The notes under the pieces were generated by a model. That model ran no database searches and was not told the DNA's origin. It saw only the letters and a list, made by a program, of their open reading frames with translations. A stretch of 60,485 nucleotides of DNA from a virus (lineage: Duplodnaviria; Heunggongvirae; Uroviricota; Caudoviricetes). A program made the translations under genes and the position numbers. The DNA is taken from IMG/VR virus record IMGVR_UViG_2671181056_000013, positions 1-60,485 of that record, one strand, 5' to 3'. Each line of letters opens with the position of its first letter. The first letter of the stretch is position 1. Below are positions 2,318-17,997 of the stretch, piece after piece.

Positions 2318-2561
2318 TGAAGGTTATGCCTGGATAGAATGAGTGCATAACAAACTATAGCTGTACATCCACTACACAGCCACGAAGGATGATAATGAAG
2401 CATTGCCTGTATGATCAATCGACTTTGTAGAGTTTCGGACGAAGGTCCGCAGAATATTCGCAGTATTAAATAAGTGTTCATTAATGCGGCAAAAACTAAT
2501 ACACCGCATCAATGTAACATCTCTGCGGTGTATGAAGAATAACCAGAATGGTTAATAGGCG

Positions 2562-3671
2562 TTAGACCGCGCGGAAGGAAATCTCGCCTGGAATGACTTC
2601 ACCCTGCCAGTAGAGCTGAGCTGCAACGCGGTCAGCCAGCTGGCGGTAGATAGCGGTAAATTCGCTCTCCGGACGGCTGATAACCGTTGGCGTGCCTTTA
2701 TCGAGATCCTCACGTAAGGAGATGTGTAACGGCATCTGCCCCAGCAGCTGTGTGTGGTATTTTTCAGCCAGTTTCTCTGCACCACCGGTACCGAAAATCG
2801 GTTCATGGTGACCACAGTTACTGCAAATATGCACACTCATGTTCTCGACAATACCAAGCACCGGAACCTCGACTTTCTCGAACATCACAATGCCTTTTTT
2901 CGCATCGATCAAAGCGATGTCCTGCGGGGTGGTGACCACGACTGCACCAGTTACTGGAATGTTTTGCGCCAGCGTCAATTGAATGTCACCGGTGCCTGGC
3001 GGCATATCAAGCACCAGATAGTCGAGATCCGGCCACAAGGTTTCCTGCAACATCTGCATTAACGCCTTGCTCGCCATCGGTCCACGCCACACCATCGCAT
3101 TGTCGTCAGTGACCAGATAACCAATTGAATTGGTTGCCAGGCCATGAGACATAATCGGTGCCATATGGGTACCGTCCGGCGAAGTTGGACGCTGATTTTC
3201 TGCGCCCAGCATGGTGGGAATTGATGGGCCGTAGATATCGGCGTCCAGAATGCCGACTTTCGCCCCTTCCGCCGCCAGTGCCAGCGCCAGGTTTACCGCC
3301 GTGGAGGATTTACCCACGCCGCCTTTACCGGAACTGACCGCAATGATGTTCTTCACACCATTAATACCCGGCTGATTCTTCACGCGTTTTAAGGTGGCGA
3401 TATTGTGCGACAGTTTCCAGTCGATAGCTTTCGCCCCGGTGATACGCAGCAGTTCGGCGCTACATTGCTCTTTTAACTCTTCAAACGCGCTATGCCAGAC
3501 GAATGGCATAACCAGTTCCACATGCAACGTGTCGTCCATCCAGGCGACATGGTGCAACGCGTTCAGCGTGGTGAGGTTATGCTTCAGGGTTGGGTGCTGA
3601 AAATTGGCCAGTGTCCCGGCGACCATTGCGCGCAAGGCTTCTGGTGATTTGGCCTGGGATTGTTCGTTCAT
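2562..3671 (-). CDS. mrp: Fe-S cluster carrier ATPase Mrp/ApbC, copy 1
   Basis: P-loop GKGGVGKS and CxxC motif. Start set at MNEQSQ (369 aa); the ORF track begins 10 codons further upstream. Confidence 0.9.
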   Translation of the reverse strand: MNEQSQAKSPEALRAMVAGTLANFQHPTLKHNLTTLNALHHVAWMDDTLHVELVMPFVWHSAFEELKEQCSAELLRITGAKAIDWKLSHNIATLKRVKNQPGINGVKNIIAVSSGKGGVGKSSTAVNLALALAAEGAKVGILDADIYGPSIPTMLGAENQRPTSPDGTHMAPIMSHGLATNSIGYLVTDDNAMVWRGPMASKALMQMLQETLWPDLDYLVLDMPPGTGDIQLTLAQNIPVTGAVVVTTPQDIALIDAKKGIVMFEKVEVPVLGIVENMSVHICSNCGHHEPIFGTGGAEKLAEKYHTQLLGQMPLHISLREDLDKGTPTVISRPESEFTAIYRQLADRVAAQLYWQGEVIPGEISFRAV

Positions 3672-3802
3672 CCCGACTCCTTTTTTGTATAGATAAACCA
3701 TCAGCTGATAGTTTACCTGAAGAATATAGAGAAGTACTTACTTAACATTTTCCCATTTGGTACTATCTAACCCCTTTTCACTATTAAGAAGTAATGCCTA
3801 CT

Positions 3803-5221
3803 ATGACTCAAGTCGCGAAGAAAATTCTGGTGACGTGCGCACTGCCGTACGCTAACGGCTCAATCCACCTCGGCCATATGCTGGAGCACATCCAGGCTGA
3901 TGTCTGGGTCCGTTACCAGCGAATGCGCGGCCACGAGGTCAACTTCATCTGCGCCGACGATGCCCACGGTACACCGATCATGCTGAAAGCTCAGCAGCTT
4001 GGTATCACCCCGGAGCAGATGATTGGCGAAATGAGTCAGGAGCATCAGACTGATTTCGCAGGCTTTAACATCAGCTATGACAACTATCACTCGACGCACA
4101 GCGAAGAGAACCGCCAGTTGTCAGAACTTATCTACTCTCGCCTGAAAGAGAACGGTTTTATTAAAAACCGCACCATCTCTCAGCTGTACGATCCGGAAAA
4201 AGGCATGTTCCTGCCGGACCGTTTTGTGAAAGGCACCTGCCCGAAATGTAAATCCCCGGATCAATACGGCGATAACTGCGAAGTCTGCGGCGCGACCTAC
4301 AGCCCGACTGAATTGATCGAGCCGAAATCGGTGGTTTCTGGCGCTACGCCGGTAATGCGTGATTCTGAACACTTCTTCTTTGATCTGCCCTCTTTCAGCG
4401 AAATGTTGCAGGCATGGACCCGCAGCGGTGCGTTGCAGGAGCAGGTGGCAAATAAAATGCAGGAGTGGTTTGAATCCGGCCTGCAACAGTGGGATATCTC
4501 CCGCGACGCGCCATACTTTGGTTTTGAAATTCCGAACGCGCCGGGCAAATATTTCTACGTCTGGCTGGACGCACCGATTGGCTACATGGGTTCTTTCAAG
4601 AATCTGTGCGACAAGCGCAGCGACAGCGTAAGCTTCGATGAATACTGGAAGAAAGACTCCACCGCCGAGCTGTACCACTTCATCGGTAAAGATATTGTTT
4701 ACTTCCACAGCCTGTTCTGGCCTGCCATGCTGGAAGGCAGCAACTTCCGCAAGCCGACCAACCTGTTTGTTCATGGCTATGTGACGGTGAACGGCGCAAA
4801 GATGTCCAAGTCTCGCGGCACCTTTATTAAAGCCAGCACCTGGCTGAATCATTTTGACGCTGACAGCCTGCGTTACTACTACACTGCGAAACTCTCTTCG
4901 CGCATTGATGATATCGATCTCAACCTGGAGGATTTCGTTCAGCGTGTGAATGCCGATATCGTGAACAAAGTGGTTAACCTGGCCTCTCGTAATGCGGGCT
5001 TTATCAACAAGCGTTTTGACGGCGTGCTGGCAAGCGAACTGGCTGACCCGCAGTTGTACAAAACCTTCACTGATGCCGCTGAAGTGATTGGTGAAGCGTG
5101 GGAAAGCCGCGAATTTGGTAAAGCAGTGCGCGAAATCATGGCGCTGGCTGATCTGGCTAACCGCTATGTCGAAGTGGCCTTAAACAATTTGTTTTCTACC
5201 TTTTCTTGTTCGAGAAAATAA
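3803..5221 (+). pseudogene. metG: metG 5' portion (about 456 codons) fused in frame to phage-like sequence, ending after 16 unrelated codons
   Basis: Class I aaRS motif HLGH and KMSKS are present. MetG-like sequence stops at 5172/5173 where the full copy continues ...RYVDEQAPW; here it reads ...[19 protein letters not shown]. Confidence 0.8.
5183..5220 (+). promoter_or_regulatory. about 40-bp phage promoter-like element, copy 1 of 3 (AAACAATTTGTTTTCTACCTTTT...GAGAAAATAA)
   Basis: A 23-nt stretch is identical to 12203-12225 and near-identical to 16091-16113; possible -35 TTGTTT and -10 GAAAAT/GATAAT. Confidence 0.4.
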
Positions 5222-5253
5222 CGTTCCTTTGTCTGGTGCTATGTACCGATCAG

Positions 5254-5300
5254 TTGCACTGAGTGAGCTTCTTTCATGTATACTGTGTAAATGAACAGTA
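5254..5300 (+). promoter_or_regulatory. sigma70-like promoter (TTGCAC ... TATACT) overlapped by a LexA/SOS box TACTGTGTAAATGAACAGTA
   Basis: CTGT-N8-ACAG palindrome at 5281-5300, matching the LexA consensus at 16 of 20 positions by my alignment, about 17 nt upstream of the umuD'-like start. Confidence 0.65.
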
Positions 5301-5316
5301 TTGAGGGCAAAACGCT

Positions 5317-5706
5317 ATGGGCTTCCCTTCTCCTGCGGCGGATTATGCTGAGAGCCGTATTTCTCTTGATCAGCAGATAATTAGACATCCTTCAGCGACC
5401 TACTTCATGAGAGCAGCTGATAGTCATCATCGTGAGGGAATATTACAGGGTGCATTGCTGGTGGTTGATTCCTCACTTACCCCGGTTGATGGTTCTCTGC
5501 TTGTATGCGCTCTGGATGGGGAATATCGCGTAAAAAGATACCGGAAGTCTCCACGTCAGCATCTGGAGGATTTAAGAACCGGTAAGAAGGAAGCATTGCC
5601 AAAGGATGACGATGGATGCACGGGCAGCAATGCCGTGTTTGGTGTGATCACTCACATTATCAACGACGCAAGAAGTGGCGAGTTTGATGATTGTCCTGTG
5701 ATGTAG
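5317..5706 (+). CDS. UmuD'-like S24 peptidase-family protein, natively starting at the position equivalent to UmuD Gly25
   Basis: MGFPSPAADY...HPSATYF...VFGVITHII aligns with E. coli UmuD from the Cys24/Gly25 cleavage site onward. Good RBS GAGGG; in-frame TGA at 5302-5304 excludes a longer N-terminus. Confidence 0.8.
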   Translation: MGFPSPAADYAESRISLDQQIIRHPSATYFMRAADSHHREGILQGALLVVDSSLTPVDGSLLVCALDGEYRVKRYRKSPRQHLEDLRTGKKEALPKDDDGCTGSNAVFGVITHIINDARSGEFDDCPVM

Positions 5707-5718
5707 GAGAACTGATTA

Positions 5719-5745
5719 GGCGGTGCAATGCACCGCCTTTTTATC
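5719..5745 (+). terminator. intrinsic terminator (GGCGGTGCA-A-TGCACCGCC plus T-run)
   Basis: Perfect 9-bp stem followed by TTTTT, placed between the convergent umuD'-like gene and mrp copy B. Confidence 0.6.
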
Positions 5746-6844
5746 ACACTGCGCGGAATGCGATTTCGCCAGGTATTACTTCACCTTGCCAATACATTTG
5801 GGCAGCAACGCGATCTGCGAGGTCACGATAAATAGCCGTAAATTCGCTATCTGGACGACTAATAACGGTTGGTGTTCCGTTATCCAGATCTTCACGAAGA
5901 GAGATATGAAGTGGCATTTGGCCTAACAACTGCGTGTTGTATTTCTCGGCCAGTTTCTGTGCTCCACCGGTGCCAAAAATTGGCTCGTGATGACCGCAGT
6001 TACTGCAAATATGCACACTCATGTTTTCAACGATACCCAGTACCGGCACTTCGACTTTTTCGAACATCACAATGCCTTTCTTCGCATCGATCAGCGCGAT
6101 GTCTTGCGGCGTAGTTACCACAACCGCACCAGTTACAGGAATGTTCTGCGCCAGCGTCAATTGAATATCACCAGTGCCCGGTGGCATATCGAGAACGAGA
6201 TAGTCCAGATCAGGCCACAGTGTTTCCTGCAACATCTGCATCAGCGCCTTGCTCGCCATCGGTCCACGCCACACCATTGCATTGTCATCGGTGACCAGAT
6301 AACCAATAGAGTTGGTTGCCAGGCCATGAGACATGATAGGTGCCATGTGAGTACCGTCCGGTGAGGTTGGACGTTGGTTTTCCGCGCCCAGCATGGTTGG
6401 AATTGATGGACCATAGATATCGGCATCCAAAATACCAACTTTCGCACCTTCAGCAGCCAAAGCCAGTGCCAAGTTTACTGCTGTGGAGGATTTACCCACG
6501 CCGCCCTTGCCTGAGCTGACGGCGATAATGTTCTTAACGCCATTAATGCCTGGTTGGTTTTTGACGCGCTTAAGCGTGGCAATGTTGTACGACAGCTTCC
6601 AGTCAATAGCCTTTGCGCCAGTGATACGGAGCAGATCACCACTACATTGCTCTTTCAGGTCTTCAAAAGGCTTATTCCACACGAAAGGCATGATTAGTTC
6701 GACATGCAGTGTGTCATCCATCAACGCAACATGGTGTAACGCTTTAAGCGTAGTCAAGTTGTGTTTCAGGGTTGGGTGCTGAAAATTAGCCAGCGTACCG
6801 GCTACCATTGCTCTCAGGGCATCCGGCGATTTGGACTCGCTCAT
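5744..6844 (-). CDS. mrp: Mrp/ApbC, divergent copy B
   Basis: 366 aa with the same motifs as copy 1, but many synonymous and some non-synonymous differences; its flanking non-coding DNA is unrelated to copy 1. Confidence 0.85.
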   Translation of the reverse strand: MSESKSPDALRAMVAGTLANFQHPTLKHNLTTLKALHHVALMDDTLHVELIMPFVWNKPFEDLKEQCSGDLLRITGAKAIDWKLSYNIATLKRVKNQPGINGVKNIIAVSSGKGGVGKSSTAVNLALALAAEGAKVGILDADIYGPSIPTMLGAENQRPTSPDGTHMAPIMSHGLATNSIGYLVTDDNAMVWRGPMASKALMQMLQETLWPDLDYLVLDMPPGTGDIQLTLAQNIPVTGAVVVTTPQDIALIDAKKGIVMFEKVEVPVLGIVENMSVHICSNCGHHEPIFGTGGAQKLAEKYNTQLLGQMPLHISLREDLDNGTPTVISRPDSEFTAIYRDLADRVAAQMYWQGEVIPGEIAFRAV

Positions 6845-7001
6845 CCCGTCTCCTTTATTTTAATTTGCGCAATTGTCGCCTTGTAGTGTACTCCAGCTAC
6901 GACATTTAATCATTTATGAGAAATGCTGTTATCACATGGCAGACATAAGGCCATTTTGTTACTATCAAGCCCCTTTTCACTACAAAGAAGTAATGCCTAC
7001 T

Positions 7002-8837
7002 ATGACCCAAGTCGCGAAGAAAATTCTGGTGACGTGCGCGCTGCCGTACGCTAACGGCTCAATCCACCTCGGCCATATGCTGGAGCACATCCAGGCTGAT
7101 GTCTGGGTTCGTTACCAGCGAATGCGCGGCCACGAGGTTAATTTCATCTGTGCCGACGATGCCCACGGTACGCCAATCATGCTGAAAGCACAGCAGCTTG
7201 GTATCACACCGGAACAGATGATTGGCGAAATGAGTCAGGAACATCAGACTGATTTCGCAGGCTTTAACATCAGCTATGACAACTATCACTCGACGCACAG
7301 CGAAGAGAACCGTCAGTTGTCCGAGCTTATCTACTCTCGCCTGAAAGAAAACGGTTTTATTAAAAACCGCACCATCTCACAGCTGTACGATCCGGAAAAA
7401 TGCATGTTCCTGCCGGACCGTTTTGTAAAAGGCACCTGCCCGAAATGTAAATCCCCGGATCAATACGGCGATAACTGCGAAGTCTGCGGCGCGACCTACA
7501 GCCCGACTGAACTGATCGAGCCGAAATCGGTGGTTTCTGGCGCTACGCCGGTAATGCGTGATTCTGAACACTTCTTCTTTGATCTGCCCTCTTTCAGCGA
7601 AATGTTGCAGGCATGGACCCGCAGCGGTGCGTTGCAGGAGCAGGTGGCAAATAAAATGCAGGAGTGGTTTGAATCCGGCCTGCAACAGTGGGATATCTCC
7701 CGCGACGCGCCATACTTTGGTTTTGAAATTCCGAACGCGCCGGGCAAATATTTCTACGTCTGGCTGGACGCACCGATTGGCTACATGGGTTCTTTCAAGA
7801 ATCTGTGCGACAAGCGCAGCGACAGCGTAAGCTTCGATGAATACTGGAAGAAAGACTCCACCGCCGAGCTGTACCACTTCATCGGTAAAGATATTGTTTA
7901 CTTCCACAGCCTGTTCTGGCCTGCCATGCTGGAAGGCAGCAACTTCCGCAAGCCGACCAACCTGTTTGTTCATGGCTATGTGACGGTGAACGGCGCAAAG
8001 ATGTCCAAGTCTCGCGGCACCTTTATTAAAGCCAGCACCTGGCTGAATCATTTTGACGCTGACAGCCTGCGTTACTACTACACTGCGAAACTCTCTTCGC
8101 GCATTGATGATATCGATCTCAACCTGGAGGATTTCGTTCAGCGTGTGAATGCCGATATCGTGAACAAAGTGGTTAACCTGGCCTCTCGTAATGCGGGCTT
8201 TATCAACAAGCGTTTTGACGGCGTGCTGGCAAGCGAACTGGCTGACCCGCAGTTGTACAAAACCTTCACTGATGCCGCTGAAGTGATTGGTGAAGCGTGG
8301 GAAAGCCGCGAATTTGGTAAAGCAGTGCGCGAAATCATGGCGCTGGCTGATCTGGCTAACCGCTATGTCGACGAGCAGGCTCCGTGGGTGGTGGCAAAAC
8401 AGGAAGGCCGCGATGCCGACCTGCAGGCAATTTGCTCAATGGGCATAAACCTGTTCCGCGTGCTGATGACTTACCTGAAGCCGGTACTGCCGAAACTGAC
8501 CGAGCGCGCAGAAGCATTCCTCAATACAGAACTGACCTGGGATGGTATCCAGCAACCGCTGCTGGGCCACAAAGTGAATCCGTTCAAAGCGCTGTATAAC
8601 CGCATCGATATGAAGCAGGTTGAAGCACTGGTGGAAGCGTCTAAAGAAGAAGTGAAAGCAGCTGCCGCGCCAGTTACTGGCCCACTGGCAGATGATCCGA
8701 TTCAGGAAACCATCACCTTTGACGACTTCGCAAAAGTTGACCTGCGCGTGGCGCTGATCGAAAACGCAGAGTTTGTTGAAGGTTCTGACAAACTGCTGCG
8801 CCTGATGCGGTGTATGAAGAATAACCAGAATGGTTAA
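7002..8837 (+). CDS. metG: methionyl-tRNA synthetase copy B, truncated after about codon 601 and read through into 10 junction codons
   Basis: Near-identical to the other metG copies except scattered SNPs. Junction at 8805/8806 joins metG to sequence equal to 2524 onward. The ORF-track N-terminal extension (6873-6992) is treated as artefact. Confidence 0.8.
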
Positions 8838-8843
8838 TAGGCG

Positions 8844-9953
8844 TTAGACCGCGCGGAAGGAAATCTCGCCTGGAATGACTTCACCCTGCCAGTAGAGCTG
8901 AGCTGCAACGCGGTCAGCCAGCTGGCGGTAGATAGCGGTAAATTCGCTCTCCGGACGGCTGATAACCGTTGGCGTGCCTTTATCGAGATCCTCACGTAAG
9001 GAGATGTGTAACGGCATCTGCCCCAGCAGCTGTGTGTGGTATTTTTCAGCCAGTTTCTCTGCACCACCGGTACCGAAAATCGGTTCATGGTGACCACAGT
9101 TACTGCAAATATGCACACTCATGTTCTCGACAATACCAAGCACCGGAACCTCGACTTTCTCGAACATCACAATGCCTTTTTTCGCATCGATCAAAGCGAT
9201 GTCCTGCGGGGTGGTGACCACGACTGCACCAGTTACTGGAATGTTTTGCGCCAGCGTCAATTGAATGTCACCGGTGCCTGGCGGCATATCAAGCACCAGA
9301 TAGTCGAGATCCGGCCACAAGGTTTCCTGCAACATCTGCATTAACGCCTTGCTCGCCATCGGTCCACGCCACACCATCGCATTGTCGTCAGTGACCAGAT
9401 AACCAATTGAATTGGTTGCCAGGCCATGAGACATAATCGGTGCCATATGGGTACCGTCCGGCGAAGTTGGACGCTGATTTTCTGCGCCCAGCATGGTGGG
9501 AATTGATGGGCCGTAGATATCGGCGTCCAGAATGCCGACTTTCGCCCCTTCCGCCGCCAGTGCCAGCGCCAGGTTTACCGCCGTGGAGGATTTACCCACG
9601 CCGCCTTTACCGGAACTGACCGCAATGATGTTCTTCACACCATTAATACCCGGCTGATTCTTCACGCGTTTTAAGGTGGCGATATTGTGCGACAGTTTCC
9701 AGTCGATAGCTTTCGCCCCGGTGATACGCAGCAGTTCGGCGCTACATTGCTCTTTTAACTCTTCAAACGCGCTATGCCAGACGAATGGCATAACCAGTTC
9801 CACATGCAACGTGTCGTCCATCCAGGCGACATGGTGCAACGCGTTCAGCGTGGTGAGGTTATGCTTCAGGGTTGGGTGCTGAAAATTGGCCAGTGTCCCG
9901 GCGACCATTGCGCGCAAGGCTTCTGGTGATTTGGCCTGGGATTGTTCGTTCAT
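8844..9953 (-). CDS. mrp: Mrp/ApbC, copy 2 (identical to copy 1)
   Basis: Translation is identical to 2562-3701; the DNA repeat runs from 8806, offset 6282 from copy 1. Confidence 0.9.
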   Translation of the reverse strand: MNEQSQAKSPEALRAMVAGTLANFQHPTLKHNLTTLNALHHVAWMDDTLHVELVMPFVWHSAFEELKEQCSAELLRITGAKAIDWKLSHNIATLKRVKNQPGINGVKNIIAVSSGKGGVGKSSTAVNLALALAAEGAKVGILDADIYGPSIPTMLGAENQRPTSPDGTHMAPIMSHGLATNSIGYLVTDDNAMVWRGPMASKALMQMLQETLWPDLDYLVLDMPPGTGDIQLTLAQNIPVTGAVVVTTPQDIALIDAKKGIVMFEKVEVPVLGIVENMSVHICSNCGHHEPIFGTGGAEKLAEKYHTQLLGQMPLHISLREDLDKGTPTVISRPESEFTAIYRQLADRVAAQLYWQGEVIPGEISFRAV

Positions 9954-10084
9954 CCCGACTCCTTTTTTGTATAGATAAACCATCAGCTGATAGTTTACCT
10001 GAAGAATATAGAGAAGTACTTACTTAACATTTTCCCATTTGGTACTATCTAACCCCTTTTCACTATTAAGAAGTAATGCCTACT

Positions 10085-12118
10085 ATGACTCAAGTCGCGA
10101 AGAAAATTCTGGTGACGTGCGCACTGCCGTACGCTAACGGCTCAATCCACCTCGGCCATATGCTGGAGCACATCCAGGCTGATGTCTGGGTCCGTTACCA
10201 GCGAATGCGCGGCCACGAGGTCAACTTCATCTGCGCCGACGATGCCCACGGTACACCGATCATGCTGAAAGCTCAGCAGCTTGGTATCACCCCGGAGCAG
10301 ATGATTGGCGAAATGAGTCAGGAGCATCAGACTGATTTCGCAGGCTTTAACATCAGCTATGACAACTATCACTCGACGCACAGCGAAGAGAACCGCCAGT
10401 TGTCAGAACTTATCTACTCTCGCCTGAAAGAGAACGGTTTTATTAAAAACCGCACCATCTCTCAGCTGTACGATCCGGAAAAAGGCATGTTCCTGCCGGA
10501 CCGTTTTGTGAAAGGCACCTGCCCGAAATGTAAATCCCCGGATCAATACGGCGATAACTGCGAAGTCTGCGGCGCGACCTACAGCCCGACTGAATTGATC
10601 GAGCCGAAATCGGTGGTTTCTGGCGCTACGCCGGTAATGCGTGATTCTGAACACTTCTTCTTTGATCTGCCCTCTTTCAGCGAAATGTTGCAGGCATGGA
10701 CCCGCAGCGGTGCGTTGCAGGAGCAGGTGGCAAATAAAATGCAGGAGTGGTTTGAATCCGGCCTGCAACAGTGGGATATCTCCCGCGACGCGCCATACTT
10801 TGGTTTTGAAATTCCGAACGCGCCGGGCAAATATTTCTACGTCTGGCTGGACGCACCGATTGGCTACATGGGTTCTTTCAAGAATCTGTGCGACAAGCGC
10901 AGCGACAGCGTAAGCTTCGATGAATACTGGAAGAAAGACTCCACCGCCGAGCTGTACCACTTCATCGGTAAAGATATTGTTTACTTCCACAGCCTGTTCT
11001 GGCCTGCCATGCTGGAAGGCAGCAACTTCCGCAAGCCGACCAACCTGTTTGTTCATGGCTATGTGACGGTGAACGGCGCAAAGATGTCCAAGTCTCGCGG
11101 CACCTTTATTAAAGCCAGCACCTGGCTGAATCATTTTGACGCTGACAGCCTGCGTTACTACTACACTGCGAAACTCTCTTCGCGCATTGATGATATCGAT
11201 CTCAACCTGGAGGATTTCGTTCAGCGTGTGAATGCCGATATCGTGAACAAAGTGGTTAACCTGGCCTCTCGTAATGCGGGCTTTATCAACAAGCGTTTTG
11301 ACGGCGTGCTGACAAGCGAACTGGCTGACCCGCAACTGTACAAAACCTTTACTGATGCCGCTGAAGTGATTGGCGAAGCATGGGAAAGCCGCGAATTTGG
11401 TAAAGCTATCCGTGAAATCATGGCATTGGCTGACCTGGCTAATCGCTATGTCGATGAACAGGCTCCGTGGGTGGTGGCGAAGCAGGAAGGTCGCGATGCA
11501 GATCTGCAGGCGATTTGCTCTATGGGCATTAACCTGTTCCGCGTGCTGATGACGTACCTGAAACCGGTACTGCCGAAACTGACTGAACGTGCAGAAGCAT
11601 TCCTGAATACAGAACTGACCTGGGATGGTATCCAGCAACCGCTTCTGGGCCATAAAGTGAATCCGTTCAAGGCACTGTATAACCGTATCGATATGAAACA
11701 GGTGGAAGCACTGGTGGAAGCATCCAAAGAAGAAGTGAAAGCCACAGCTGCACCGGTAACTGGCCCACTGGCTGACGAACCGATTCAGGAAACCATCACC
11801 TTTGACGACTTCGCCAAAGTTGACCTGCGTGTGGCGCTGATTGAAAACGCGGAGTTTGTCGAAGGTTCTGACAAACTGCTTCGCCTGACGCTGGATCTCG
11901 GTGGTGAAAAGCGTAATGTCTTCTCAGGCATCCGTTCCGCTTATCCAGATCCACAGGCACTGATTGGTCGTCACACCATTATGGTGGCTAACCTGGCACC
12001 ACGTAAAATGCGCTTCGGTATCTCTGAAGGCATGGTGATGGCTGCCGGTCCTGGCGGGAAAGATATCTTCCTGTTAAGCCCGGATGCTGGTGCTAAACCT
12101 GGCCACCAGGTTAAGTAA
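10085..12118 (+). CDS. metG: methionyl-tRNA synthetase, full length (677 aa)
   Basis: Complete ORF including the C-terminal tRNA-binding domain. The 3' third differs at many sites from copies 1 and B. Confidence 0.9.
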
Positions 12119-12615: not shown

Positions 12616-12801
12616 ATGCTTAAAGAAGACTCATATCTACTAAAGGCGCTTGAAATGAGTGGCGTTGAACCTACAGTGAAAAACGCTCACGATATCTACC
12701 TTCAGTTTTCGACAGAGCTGAAACAGCTCATAAATAAATATGGAGTGAACGACTCCAGCGTCAAAGCCATGATAGATGATGAATTAGACCATCTCATCTA
12801 A
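12616..12801 (+). CDS. hypothetical small protein (61 aa)
   Basis: ORF with RBS-like GGAGAA upstream. Confidence 0.45.
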   Translation: MLKEDSYLLKALEMSGVEPTVKNAHDIYLQFSTELKQLINKYGVNDSSVKAMIDDELDHLI

Positions 12802-12899
12802 TCAAACCGTTGATAATGGCGGTCACAATTTGATTCTTTTCTATAAGAACCCGTTGATCGCCACTACTACCCTCCCATACCAGCAATCACATCATTAAA

Positions 12900-13700
12900 T
12901 ATCAATAGGTTATGGTTGTTTATACCAATAAGAAAACAACTAAATAACAGATCAACGAAACATCAACGCTTTCTCCCGATTTGGTCTAAAAAATTGACGT
13001 TATCACACATCACTTCTTATACCCGTAATTCTACGCAGCAGATAGCGCCACAGCGTCCAAATTTCACCACAGACGACTCAACACACTACCAACAAAAACA
13101 CACGCTCAAAATCGCTCCCGTTGCGTTACACAACCATATAAACAACTTATTTTCAGGCATAACAAAACAACCAAATAACACATATGCCATTACCCAAAAC
13201 AACCAACCTCTTTATGGCAGGCTACCGAAAAGACCCACCTCTTCTCCCCAGGCTACCGGACAACCAACCTAACTTTCACAGGCAATCCGAAAACATTCAT
13301 ACGCGCGATACCCACGACACGCCATTACCCAAACAGCGAAGAAACACCTGAACCGCTGAAACCCTAACGAAGCCTGTAACCGCAAGGTTTCTCTCAATCC
13401 CAAAAGACACGAAACATAACAATCACGGGAAACGCCATTACCCAATACACGAATAACTACAAAAGCCTTCACACACTCCAGACAAACAACTCAAACACAA
13501 TAACGAAAGCAATCGCCCACCTGCCATTACTCCATACACGGAGAAGAACAATCACCAAAACGACGAGAACACCCCCATAGAAGAACCACCGCAAAACTAA
13601 CGAAACCACATACACCGACAGAGAAAACAACACACCCAATTCACCAACAGAAATAGTCGCCGTATAGAACATTCTGGAAGGAGTGAGCATTAACGCCTAT
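12900..13700. repeat. G-poor, CA-rich non-coding tract with dispersed GCCATTACCCA and CAGGCTACCG...CCCACCT repeats
   Basis: Top strand is almost devoid of G for about 800 bp. Four GCCATTAC(C/T)C copies near 13186, 13321, 13433, 13523; two CAGGCTACCG copies at 13217-13273. The only ORF translates to low-complexity sequence. Confidence 0.6.
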
Positions 13701-13854
13701 AGAGAGGTTGAGACAGATAAAACACAACATGTATAGCGAAGAAGCCAGGTATGTATAAGTGGAGAGGGAAGGAGGGGGGTCGCCTCCTTTTTCGTATTTA
13801 TTCAACTCCTGATTTTATCCCCCGTAACACCCCCTACGGTCAGCCTTCGGTCCA

Positions 13855-13992
13855 TACAGGGAAAAGGTTGCATCCAGCTACAGAAACGGCTGGGTTGCCT
13901 TCGGGGGAACGGCTGGGGATTTTCAGGGAAACGGTCGAGTTGCCTGTGTGGATTTCGGGAAAAGGCTCGATGCCGGTTCTGGAACGGCGGCG
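13855..13992. repeat. iteron-like direct repeats (GGGAAAMGG family, about 6 copies at 21-32 bp spacing), set 1
   Basis: CAGGGAAAAGG, CAGAAACGGC, CGGGGGAACGGC, CAGGGAAACGG, TCGGGAAAAGGC, CTGGAACGGCGG in series; no convincing ORF. Confidence 0.55.
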
Positions 13993-14370
13993 TACCGGTA
14001 TAGCGAGAGAGAGAGTTGCAGCTACCCACCTGTAATGTGCGGGAAGAAGAGAGGCGCTCACGTGCAGGCTGACTTGCTTACCGCTGGATTCCCTCTGAAT
14101 GCCAGATACAGCGTAATTGTGCCAGACAGCCAGCGGGTCACAATCGATTTCAGTAGGTTTTCGGGGAGAGGATTATTCTACCCACCAGCCCCGCGGCGCG
14201 CGTAGAGCAGAATATCGTAAATACTGGCTCTCGTGTCGTTCCCGGATATTCACTGCCCAGCCTGGCTTTCCCGACATAAAATCCTTTTTCGCCTTTATCT
14301 TATTGCGATAATAACACCAACAAGTAAACAGCATATTTAGACGTTATAGAAACGAAGTGAGGATGAAGAG

Positions 14371-14589
14371 ATGATTAAGATGCCTGTGACGGTTGAGGTG
14401 TGGGGCGTGGATTCCCTGGCTGAGTGTCTGGATGCAGTGGGGCCGGAGTTGTACCGCAAGTTGTGGTCGTTCGTCCCGGCAGAAGGGGAATCGCCCAAAG
14501 GGAAGGATATCTGGCACCTGCTGAGTGAAGATGAAAAGCGGGAGCTGGTGGGCGCGGTACACAGCGAGTTCCCGGACGACCAAGATTAA
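14371..14589 (+). CDS. hypothetical acidic small protein (72 aa)
   Basis: ORF with GAGGA RBS, followed by a terminator. Confidence 0.5.
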   Translation: MIKMPVTVEVWGVDSLAECLDAVGPELYRKLWSFVPAEGESPKGKDIWHLLSEDEKRELVGAVHSEFPDDQD

Positions 14590-16683: not shown

Positions 16684-16732
16684 TTATTAAGGCCACCACT
16701 GCTGGTGGCCTTAAATGACCATCCTGTTTCCC

Positions 16733-16805
16733 GCAGGCTAAAAACACCAACCTCTTACCTCCAGGCAACCGACAAACCCACCTGTTCCCGTCCGGCTACC
16801 GCAAC
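16733..16805. repeat. second cluster of CAGGCTACCG...CCCACCT-family repeats
   Basis: GCAGGCTAAAAACACCAACCTC, CCAGGCAACCGACAAACCCACCTG and CCGGCTACCGCAAC resemble the repeats at 13217-13273. Confidence 0.45.
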
Positions 16806-16887: not shown

Positions 16888-17370
16888 ATGAATTTTATCG
16901 CTACTGTAAACGCACCCGCACATGGCAATATCGCTGTAACGTTCTCTGACATTGAAAAACGAGTACTTGGTGCATGGCGCGACAATGAGACGGTAGAACT
17001 GTCAGCACAAGAAAAATGCATTATTGCACGCGACATCATTGGCAATCGTCGTTACTCGCGGGTATTTGAGAAAGCGTATGTGGTAAATTCTGGATTCGGA
17101 ACGTTCGTCTTTCCGGTGCGCTCCGGGCGATTCTGCCAGTCCAAGCTGATTGAGTTCGCTACGCAGATTTCTGTCTGGATTAAAACTCAATCGTCGTTCA
17201 AATTTTCCGACGATGAAGCAGTATCGCAGGGGATGCGGATCGCCAACAATGCAATTAAATGCAAAAACATTACGTATACCGCTGGCGTTGATACATGGAA
17301 ACTGTTTTGCGCTAACTTTATGCTGAATGTATACGCAAGCAACCGCATCCACATCCTTGATGGCGTGTAA
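16888..17370 (+). CDS. hypothetical early protein (160 aa)
   Basis: ORF with AAGGA RBS, preceded by the palindromic motif at 16853. Confidence 0.6.
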   Translation: MNFIATVNAPAHGNIAVTFSDIEKRVLGAWRDNETVELSAQEKCIIARDIIGNRRYSRVFEKAYVVNSGFGTFVFPVRSGRFCQSKLIEFATQISVWIKTQSSFKFSDDEAVSQGMRIANNAIKCKNITYTAGVDTWKLFCANFMLNVYASNRIHILDGV

Positions 17371-17417: not shown

Positions 17418-17580
17418 CGCAGGGAAATTTTCAGAAACGGCGAGGAACGTATTCATGAACCGACGGGGAACGGCCAGGATTTTTTCGGGAAACGGCTGCA
17501 TTCGCCTTTATGTAGAAAAAACATCGGGAAGCTGGTGGAATCCAACCAGCGGTTGTCGGACAGGTGAGCGGGGAAAATTA
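17418..17580. repeat. iteron-like direct repeats (GGGAAAMGG family), set 2
   Basis: CAGGGAAATTTTCAGAAACGG, ACGGGGAACGGC, TCGGGAAACGGC, TCGGGAAGCTGG; closely resembles set 1 including the GATTTT...CGGGAAACGG units. Confidence 0.5.
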
Positions 17581-17962
17581 TGATGACTTTCGTCGCCTGA
17601 GACATCCAGATTTCTTTCGTAGCGTAATCGCATACGTGATTAAGTGGTGTGATTATGTGAAAAATCACGCGCACATAATACGCGAGCGGATACGGAACAA
17701 AACAAAATGCCGATCCGCGCCGACAAATAAACGCGGATCACATAGCAAGACTAAAAGCCAATGATTAACTATGCGCTATAGCGCAATATAACGCGTTTTA
17801 AGCGCGTTAATGTGTTAAGTAATGGGTATGTACTGGCAAGGATATAAAAGCGCGTCTATGGCGTTATTTTGGCGCTTATTTTTATGTTGTTGGAGTGAGT
17901 CAAAGACAATAAAAAACGCGCCATCATTGGCGCGTTATGGTGGGAGTATTGGAAACGAAAAA

Positions 17963-17997
17963 AGCGCCCACTATGGGCGCTATTGTTTTTATTTTTC
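17963..17997 (+). terminator. GC hairpin AGCGCCCA-CTA-TGGGCGCT plus T-run; inverted partner copy at 18458-18478
   Basis: One of several GCGC-rich hairpins in the AT-rich 17760-18000 tract; the same 19-mer recurs as its reverse complement 495 bp away. Confidence 0.55.

Follow-up and report, generated by a model that had tools for sequence, protein, structure and literature searches.

A long, A+C-rich and structure-free non-coding tract beside the early genes of SSU5/pHCM2-type phage-plasmids, a possible Rho-dependent barrier

What kind of element is an ~800-bp stretch of phage DNA that differs sharply in base composition between its two strands and yet holds no credible gene? A preliminary description of the window (the whole stretch of DNA analysed here, 60,485 nucleotides) had reported that the top strand at positions 12900–13700 is almost free of G within otherwise balanced DNA, that it carries two dispersed repeat families, and that it could be a structured non-coding RNA, a protein-binding array, or a DNA mimic or decoy. 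Positions below are those of the window, and all features are given on the + strand.

Positions 12900–13700 contain 316 A, 245 C, 102 G and 138 T (39.5/30.6/12.7/17.2%), compared with a window average of 28.2/21.9/24.3/25.6% for A/C/G/T. The strand asymmetry is therefore real, but "almost free of G" overstates it, because G is halved rather than absent and the window has its longest G-free run outside the tract. T is reduced too, hence the stretch is better described as A+C-rich and G+T-poor than by loss of G alone. Between 12900 and 13600 the GC skew is −0.37 to −0.56 and the AT skew is +0.23 to +0.63, and sliding-window composition shows both returning to about zero on either side, in agreement with the claim that the surrounding DNA is balanced. 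The skew sets in at ~12860 and ends at ~13700, slightly wider than first delimited. On composition and folding, 12860–13700 as a whole (39% A, 31% C, 12% G, 17% T; A+C 70%) is an A+C-rich, G+T-poor, structure-free non-coding tract that forms the core of the largest C>G bubble described below. In 400-nt windows the (G+T)−(A+C) skew falls to −0.505, against a window mean of −0.001 (sd 0.074), a departure of ~6.8 SD, and the tract is the only stretch beyond 3 SD in this skew across the ~108-kb plasmid. Its G+C content is 43%, versus 46% for the window, and a search for A-tract, 10.5-bp and other periodicities found none in the tract.

The tract and its flanks match phage-plasmids of the SSU5/pHCM2 type, for which the whole plasmid is ~108 kb. 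Specifically, 12850–13800 is 100% identical to Shigella sonnei plasmid LR213459, 12600–14100 is 97% identical to Escherichia phage CMS-2020a, and ~12800–14100 is 94–95% identical to phages Cyrano and PhiR41_1. The tract is carried by 838 PLSDB plasmid records (Klebsiella, Escherichia, Enterobacter, Salmonella, Citrobacter, Cronobacter and others) and by 243 of 5,426 complete E. coli genomes. In the window, the terminase and structural genes occupy 26–52 kb (terminase at 26–28 kb), ParB_N proteins are encoded at 22.6–24 kb (22636/23301), ParA at 54.7 kb (54698) and a DnaB-like helicase at 57.9 kb (57918). The tract itself sits in a run of small + strand early genes without known function, each matching a PHROG family; the neighbouring ORFs gave no Pfam, NCBIfam or PADLOC match, and PADLOC likewise returned no defence or anti-defence context for the tract. 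The adjacent 72-aa protein, used as a query, belongs to a family confined to SSU5-like elements, with at least 62% identity (full-length matches all at least 70%). A literature search on SSU5, pHCM2 and phage-plasmids, covering non-coding RNA, origin, operator and transcriptome, found nothing on this region.

In the relatives compared, the order is constant: variable upstream genes, the tract, then conserved downstream early genes. The upstream genes differ in every relative, are mostly co-oriented and end at most ~20 nt from the conserved block; in a Klebsiella lineage the upstream gene is directed away from the tract and the tract is still kept. The conserved non-coding block exceeds the tract: it extends between the stop codon at 12801 and the next promoter (~14340) and includes a hairpin (13768–13793) and a G-rich array (13855–13995). 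No larger conserved non-coding region than this block (12800–14340) was seen in the window.

Within E. coli the tract diverges by 1–4.7% per 100 nt, no more than the flanking genes, and between genera its identity is 66–71%, compared with 67–69% for adjacent coding genes. Composition is kept along with sequence: A+C is 62–72% in 47 of 47 homologues, the inter-anchor length stays within 661–741 nt in 11 lineages, and the A+C bias, length and motifs are retained in every lineage. Furthermore, the A+C bias is equal within and outside the motifs of the tract and is maintained through 30–40% sequence divergence, and the G residues are neither concentrated in motifs nor better conserved than A or C. 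Transitions dominate the substitutions between close relatives and A↔C differences those at long range, a spectrum that fits a maintained composition but is not decisive, since misaligned A/C-rich sequence gives the same pattern. Judged from these lineage comparisons, the tract is under selection. The repeats, whose lack of conservation in related genomes the preliminary description had named as an observation that would count against it, are conserved in related phage-plasmids.

The selected feature is not a reading frame. Tract ORFs have no PHROG or Pfam match, whereas every flanking ORF matches a PHROG. Stop-free stretches fall in different places and frames across 11 lineages, and the lineage alignment places indels of 8 and 15 nt inside the tract ORF. 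Shuffled sequences give open stretches of 93 ± 22 codons and 12% of them reach 123, so the 123-codon stretch of the tract is what chance produces in T-poor sequence, and the period-3 power of the tract is 4.6 (background), versus 12–31 in real genes. PGAP/RefSeq leaves the tract unannotated in 25 of 25 rows taken as a sample of the 243 E. coli plasmids that match, and among 40 PLSDB rows sampled the same is true of all but a few. With no conserved frame, no codon periodicity and no family match, the sequence bears out the earlier statement that there is no credible ORF: the tract is non-coding.

Nor is the tract a structured RNA, the first of the functions proposed for it. Because A and C cannot pair, its + strand is the least foldable sequence of the window: its 150-nt segments have minimum free energies between −5.8 and −19 kcal/mol, where the mean is −36.7 (sd 8.1). 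Of the ten weakest 150-nt windows, seven lie inside the tract and one more is the second repeat cluster described below. The same holds in five relatives from four genera, where the + strand of the tract gives −17 to −24, versus −35 to −38 kcal/mol per 150 nt. On the minus strand folding is normal, with an average free energy, and a full-length fold of the tract has z = only −2.2 (20 shuffles). A search of 10–20 kb against Rfam (E ≤ 1) found no match in the tract, or anywhere in 12800–14300, and RNAalifold on the adjacent G-rich part gave a covariation term of +3.16, which does not support a structure. The idea of a structured non-coding RNA is thus contradicted. Duplex DNA-binding sites cannot account for this maintained single-strand bias, which suggests that the + strand works as RNA or, with lower likelihood, as single-stranded DNA.

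The conserved block contains, in addition to its composition, an ordered series of motifs. Its left boundary (12803–12866) carries two direct copies of CCGTTGAT (12807 and 12851), with columns 12840–12865 invariant across 11 lineages, and in most relatives examined the variable cargo genes stop immediately to the left of it. A promoter-proximal module, TTTATACC-aat-AAGAAAACAA, follows at 12918–12948. Like modules precede phage genes; this one, compared with 13 operator sites, has only the left half of the palindromic operator, and its AAGAAAACAA and TAAATAACA are nearly invariant. At 12951–12968 are two copies of ATCAACG, the inverse of the CGTTGAT at the left boundary, conserved in all lineages. 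The best-conserved part of the block is a σ70-like promoter candidate at 12994–13023, TTGACG-N17-TTATAC(C), preceded by an A-run. Its TTGACGTT does not vary in 9 lineages, nor its TCTTATA in 11; the spacer has no indels, and a search with the motif retrieved 46 viral contigs. A strict consensus promoter scan misses it, as its −10 element is without the final T (the T at −7). The lineage alignment reveals a further conserved block, ACGCTCAAAATCGCTCCCGTTGCGTT, at 13102–13127. At 13139–13175 lies a copy of the phage-wide palindromic operator, AAACAAnTTGTTT (operator at 13140), followed by AACAAAACAA; the operator has one mismatch here and is perfect in relatives. The palindrome occurs at 13 sites in the window, against 0.40 expected, and always between a −10-like hexamer and a Shine–Dalgarno sequence.

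Beyond the tract, a G-rich hairpin, GGAGG-GGGGTCG-CCTCC followed by TTTTTCGTATTT, occupies 13766–13803 and was detected in a scan as a terminator-like site at 13768–13793. The hairpin is kept in relatives (pairs at columns 21–48, one with compensatory changes), the U-run being absent from most, and in this lineage it has the appearance of an intrinsic terminator. A G-rich array of GGrAAmGG (13860, 13905, 13927 and 13958, within 13855–13995), often preceded by TTTC, belongs to the second part of the conserved block, which extends to ~14340. Comparison of operator modules identified a separate promoter/operator module, TTGCGATAAT ... CAAGTAAACA, at 14286–14345 for the gene at 14371. As this gene has its own module, the downstream genes need no read-through from the tract.

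Both repeat families reported earlier are present in the tract, with all copies of each in the same orientation. The first, announced as four motif copies ~90–135 bp apart, was recovered by a repeat search as four GCCATTAC units at 13186, 13321, 13434 and 13523 (13186–13552), with spacings of 135, 113 and 89, that is, four copies in 340 nt; relatives have up to five. The extended unit reads GCCATTACyymAyAyrCGGAGAAsAAC, and GCCATTAC occurs six times in the window, against 1.76 ± 1.31 expected, a number reached in 0 of 100 shuffles. The second consists of three tandem ~30-nt units at 13196–13292 (cluster 1), rACCnACCTnTT-N5-CAGGCTACCG or, in another notation, ACCnACCT-N9-CAGGCTACCG, whose core is invariant across genera. 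Its recurrence, noted before at 16733–16805, was found as three further ~30-nt units at 16712–16805 (cluster 2), directly 5′ of the promoter of a conserved 160-aa ORF (16888–17370; ORF160) at about −45 to −135. The two clusters are similar to each other (blastn E 7e-9), and the units have no copies elsewhere in the plasmid; a pattern scan with the unit gave matches outside the SSU5-like family that were mostly chance. The tandem units are spaced by 30–31 bp, which corresponds to three helical turns, and in SSU5 cluster 2 lies between divergent genes. Altogether, at least four repeat families show base-level conservation across genera, which extends to their G residues.

ORF160 resembles the tract in being flanked by 30-nt units and the G-rich motif, a copy of which (GGGGAACGGCyrGGaTTTTTTCGGGAAACGG; E 4e-4) lies 3′ of it at 17465–17495. 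The protein has a confident structural model (pLDDT 89), with no fold or sequence match. A decayed copy of ORF160 was considered as the source of the tract and rejected, there being no residual similarity between them, and SSU5_116, a "repressor-like" protein encoded beside cluster 2, was discarded as a partner of the repeats because it has no homologue in this plasmid.

The reading that we rank first, with a probability of roughly 0.35, is that the tract is an untranslated, rightward-transcribed and structure-free Rho-loading barrier between variable cargo and conserved early genes, equipped with factor-binding repeats. For a long transcript that is untranslated, unstructured and C>G, loading of Rho is the most direct biochemical consequence. 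Rho is known to load on stretches of ~80 nt or more of RNA that carry no ribosomes, lack structure and are rich in C and poor in G, and RhoTermPredict requires C/G above 1 across 78 nt and, beyond it, a hairpin pause site (PMC6407284). In the work of Nadiras et al. (2018), all templates with a C>G bubble larger than 78 bp or 700 %×bp terminated with Rho in vitro, and %CA, %AAC, %ACA and %CAC were among the best positive descriptors, GG, GT, GTG and GGT being negative ones (PMC6144790).

The C>G bubble at the tract (12743–13709) has an area of 16,103 %×bp at a mean C−G of 18% and is the largest of 1,391 on both strands, 23 times the 700 %×bp at which all tested templates terminated (PMC6144790). 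CA, AAC, ACA and CAC are enriched 2–3.5-fold, and GG, GT, GTG and GGT are depleted 3–12-fold. C/G is ~2.4, and a hairpin follows at 13768. Of the features expected of a rut region, the tract has an uninterrupted C>G bubble of at least 78 nt, little structure and, as its lack of a plausible reading frame implies, no translation. Spaced YC dimers behave differently: the longest (YC)N9–13 chain comprises four, the minimum for rut and ordinary for this genome, and such dimers are not above composition (z −1.95 in the window, −1.9 to +1.8 in relatives).

RNA-seq of E. coli LF82 lysogenic for Cyrano, the 95%-identical relative, records 57 FPKM for the upstream gene CYRAN_102, the floor value of 5 for the tract ORF CYRAN_103, and 12–17 FPKM for the downstream genes (PMC9928086, S1 table). 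Taken together, the C>G bubble, the descriptor enrichment, the hairpin, the position and the LF82 expression place a rightward Rho-based barrier or attenuator of transcription first.

Three steps of this reading are inferred: the tract is transcribed, Rho acts on it, and its purpose is to be a barrier. The tract would be transcribed rightward, like all flanking genes, as the untranslated body of its unit, from the upstream cargo genes, from the tract's own conserved promoter- and operator-like modules at 12918–13175, or from both. The RNA would be kept nearly devoid of G and U, the pairing partners, with C strongly exceeding G. On such ribosome-free, unstructured RNA, Rho should load and halt RNA polymerase inside the tract or shortly after it, with the hairpin and U-run at 13768–13798 as a possible back-up in this lineage. 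The outcome would be a one-way barrier, separating an accessory-gene island on the left from early genes on the right that have their own operator-controlled promoter at 14286–14345. A phage factor that blocks Rho could open the barrier, and the two repeat families embedded in the tract probably bind a phage or host factor that modulates it.

Known rut regions, including λ tR1 (rutA/rutB), trp t′ and the mgtA, corA and rho leaders, resemble the tract in several ways. Their sense RNA is untranslated, unstructured, C-rich and G-poor, and rich in CA, AAC, ACA and CAC; they lie between transcription units, and a C>G bubble is followed by a hairpin or pause. The tract differs in being ~10 times longer than the canonical 80-nt rut, in its depletion of T, in carrying sequence-specific repeats that Rho does not need, and in a YC spacing that is not optimised.

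Several observations weigh against a Rho barrier. A 40-nt intrinsic terminator would suffice for insulation, and 800 nt with conserved motifs that contain G implies more. T depletion is not required for Rho, and the YC spacing is no better than composition predicts. The Klebsiella lineage keeps the tract despite an upstream gene that points outward, the promoter candidate fails the strict scan, and the tract ORF stays at the floor of the lysogen RNA-seq. Moreover, cluster 2 lies 5′ of a promoter and, in SSU5, between divergent genes, a position more natural for a DNA site than for an RNA element.

The position of cluster 2 leads directly to the serious rival, which is nearly as likely as the Rho barrier. 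On this account the tract is a DNA-level protein-binding array, a regulatory or architectural hub in which the GCCATTAC units, the 30-nt units, CGTTGAT/ATCAACG and the operator copies bind phage or host proteins on duplex DNA, for example a protein that activates or represses early promoters, or one that builds a nucleoprotein complex, and the A+C bias is secondary. The base-by-base conservation of at least four repeat families across genera, the three-turn spacing of the tandem units and the phage-wide operator copy inside the tract all argue for it. So do the 30-nt units near ORF160, which are placed at about −45 to −135 relative to its promoter and, in SSU5, between divergent genes, a typical setting for a DNA-binding regulator. 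The floor value of the tract ORF in the lysogen also counts in favour of an array.

Phage T7 offers a comparable non-transcribed, A+C-rich repeat array adjoining its left terminal repeat (nt ~150–400, with CCTAAAG repeats). Nucleotides 150–400 have 67% A+C and 11% G, and are the most skewed stretch of T7; like the tract, the array is non-coding, is G-poor on the top strand and has dispersed short direct repeats. It is unlike the tract in length (250 bp versus 840 bp), in lying at a physical end by the packaging junction, 5′ of early promoters, and in having no sequence similarity to it. The function of the T7 array is poorly defined. What duplex binding sites do not explain is the strand bias, equal outside the motifs. 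Binding by proteins, as first proposed, therefore keeps its plausibility for the two repeat families and leaves the bias unaccounted for. The Rho barrier and the DNA array may both hold, at different layers.

Two further readings were considered. In the first, which we regard as rather unlikely, the tract would be a module of structure-free nucleic acid, defined by composition and not by fold, that is driven from its promoter during infection or induction and soaks up or redirects a host factor, most plausibly Rho as a silencer of foreign DNA, switching the element from plasmid maintenance to lytic expression, with the repeats anchoring a phage protein. In the second, a decoy or sponge, the promoter at 12994 would produce an abundant CA-rich RNA in lytic growth that titrates a host factor binding single-stranded RNA, such as Rho, Hfq, a GU-rich sRNA (GcvB), a ribonuclease or a toxin. 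Phage-encoded CA-rich anti-sRNAs (AgvB) and A-rich protein sponges (CrcZ) exist, and known sponges (CrcZ, CsrB, AgvB) share with the tract repeated short motifs in an unstructured A/C-rich context. A promoter-like site, ~740 nt of structure-free RNA and a hairpin with a U-run do form a self-contained unit, which is kept where no upstream gene reads in.

The motif content of the tract and the lysogen data make a decoy unlikely. Known sponges are 60–400 nt long and enriched in A-R-N or GGA; in the tract, A-R-N runs, the motif of the Hfq distal face, are not above composition, and the GGA motifs of CsrA are depleted along with G. Specifically, (ARN)4 and (AAN)3 counts equal the shuffle expectation in 11 of 11 lineages and GG is depleted 3-fold, a profile that does not fit a sponge for Hfq or CsrA. 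In addition, the tract ORF is at the floor in the lysogen, and an unstructured RNA would be short-lived. Pairing with GcvB was considered separately and rejected: one 13-nt match to the R1 complement (13486–13500) is not conserved in relatives.

A cis-acting site for replication, packaging or entry (a lytic origin, a pac-like site or an injection stop), in which one strand is kept unstructured when single-stranded, seems improbable as well. It would account for a large conserved non-coding block (12800–14340) with several direct-repeat families, for partial repeat copies flanking another gene, as iterons often do, and for promoter-like sites, which could activate an origin; the T7 analogue near the genome end also favours it. 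Iteron and centromere arrays (P1 oriR/incA, the RepFIB repeats flanking repA, N15 sopC) likewise have direct repeats in one orientation and in two clusters, of which one lies beside a gene and reaches into its promoter region. However, the tract is far from the replication, partition and packaging genes (ParB_N, terminase, ParA and DnaB-like helicase, at the positions given above), and the adjacent rep or par gene and AT-rich region that mark an iteron origin or centromere were not found at it. Its G+C content of 43%, versus 46%, indicates no AT-rich unwinding element, no cluster of DnaA boxes was seen by eye, and its non-template strand is not G-rich, which disfavours an R-loop primer. Moreover, iteron arrays show no strand bias, and their units are 17–22 nt rather than 30 nt. 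A type III toxin–antitoxin locus fits no better, as this class has 34–45-nt tandem repeats 5′ of ToxN/AbiQ and the tract has three 30-nt repeats and no toxin ORF.

Finally, a protein-coding gene (ORF 12916–13272, or minus-strand ORFs) or a decayed pseudogene is hardly credible: a + strand CDS is called in two deposited records, Cyrano and PhiR41_1, and a minus-strand CDS, SSU5_108, in the SSU5 record, but PGAP makes no call in the 25 RefSeq E. coli rows sampled, the frame, periodicity and family searches were all negative, the ORF length is as expected from a T-poor composition, and a pseudogene would not remain as conserved as the neighbouring genes.

More broadly, the tract illustrates that selection can preserve an absence of structure, by means of A+C composition, over ~700 nt and across genera, a signal that structure-based RNA discovery pipelines and gene callers both miss. 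If the Rho reading is true, the tract is an unusually long, motif-bearing rut region or Rho-dependent barrier; if the decoy reading were true, it would represent a new kind of element, one that is defined by an enforced lack of structure. Clinical Enterobacteriaceae commonly harbour SSU5/pHCM2-type phage-plasmids. These elements bring resistance and virulence cargo with them, and the control of their lysis–lysogeny decision and cargo expression is essentially unstudied. The block is placed exactly where variable cargo inserts beside conserved early genes. A Rho-based insulator or switch at this position would allow cargo to be expressed in the plasmid state without firing the lytic genes, and would provide a handle, through bicyclomycin or rho alleles, for inducing or curing these elements.

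The variable cargo stops and the conserved sequence starts at the same point, positions 12803–12866, in most of the relatives examined. Two direct repeats of CCGTTGAT mark this boundary, and two inverted copies of CCGTTGAT are located at 12951 and 12962. The boundary may be a recombination or insertion border for cargo exchange.

Positions 2524–12118 hold three paralogous units, each composed of an Mrp/NUBPL-type P-loop ATPase gene on the minus strand and a methionyl-tRNA synthetase gene on the plus strand. Across 2.6 kb, unit 1 shares 99.5% identity with unit 3, while the ATPase of unit 2 shows only 83% identity to those of units 1 and 3, and the first of the three methionyl-tRNA synthetases is truncated (475 aa). 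The related phage Cyrano carries the ATPase/methionyl-tRNA synthetase unit in single copy. The threefold arrangement looks as if a cargo module had been amplified in mosaic fashion. Fimbrial cargo is present at 36–1794 on the minus strand, with a PapD-type chaperone (498–1217) and a fimbrial subunit (1252–1794), both on that strand. In addition, a minus-strand ORF aboard the phage-plasmid (19438–19959) matches Pfam Flag1_repress, an FljA-like repressor of phase-1 flagellin, at full length (E = 1.4e-68).

A G-rich array at 13855–13995, located 3′ of the A+C-rich non-coding tract, contains (TTTC)rGGrAAmGG motifs and two CCTTCGG (UUCG-type) elements. The array is kept across genera, and RNAalifold gave no net covariation support for it. 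A single copy of the array motif recurs at 17465–17495, beyond the conserved 160-aa ORF. Back-to-back hairpins at 17900–17995 give weak Rfam matches on both strands, to MicX (34 bits), Hrs1 (32 bits) and STnc350 (26 bits), all of them sub-threshold and far under the gathering scores; the hairpins are most likely a bidirectional terminator, not an sRNA.

The whole window holds 14 copies of the E. coli Chi sequence, GCTGGTGG, versus 1.24 expected, with 10 of the 14 copies on the plus strand (for example, at 14544, 16701 and 17531) and others on the minus strand (for example, at 14182 and 14598). A perfect hairpin at 16689–16712, directly ahead of the second repeat cluster (three ~30-nt units), contains one Chi copy in its loop-stem.

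The palindrome (AG)AAAACAAnTTGTTT(TCT) is present in 13 copies in the window versus 0.4 expected, at 1885, 5182, 12203, 12254, 13140, 14703, 15188, 16090, 16855, 26175, 26200, 54650 and 57886. Most copies are flanked by a −10-like hexamer on one side and a Shine-Dalgarno sequence on the other, and the genes with the palindrome placed in this way include early genes, the terminase operon, parA and the DnaB-like helicase gene. The palindrome is probably either an operator through which a global regulator of the phage acts or a promoter element specific to the phage.
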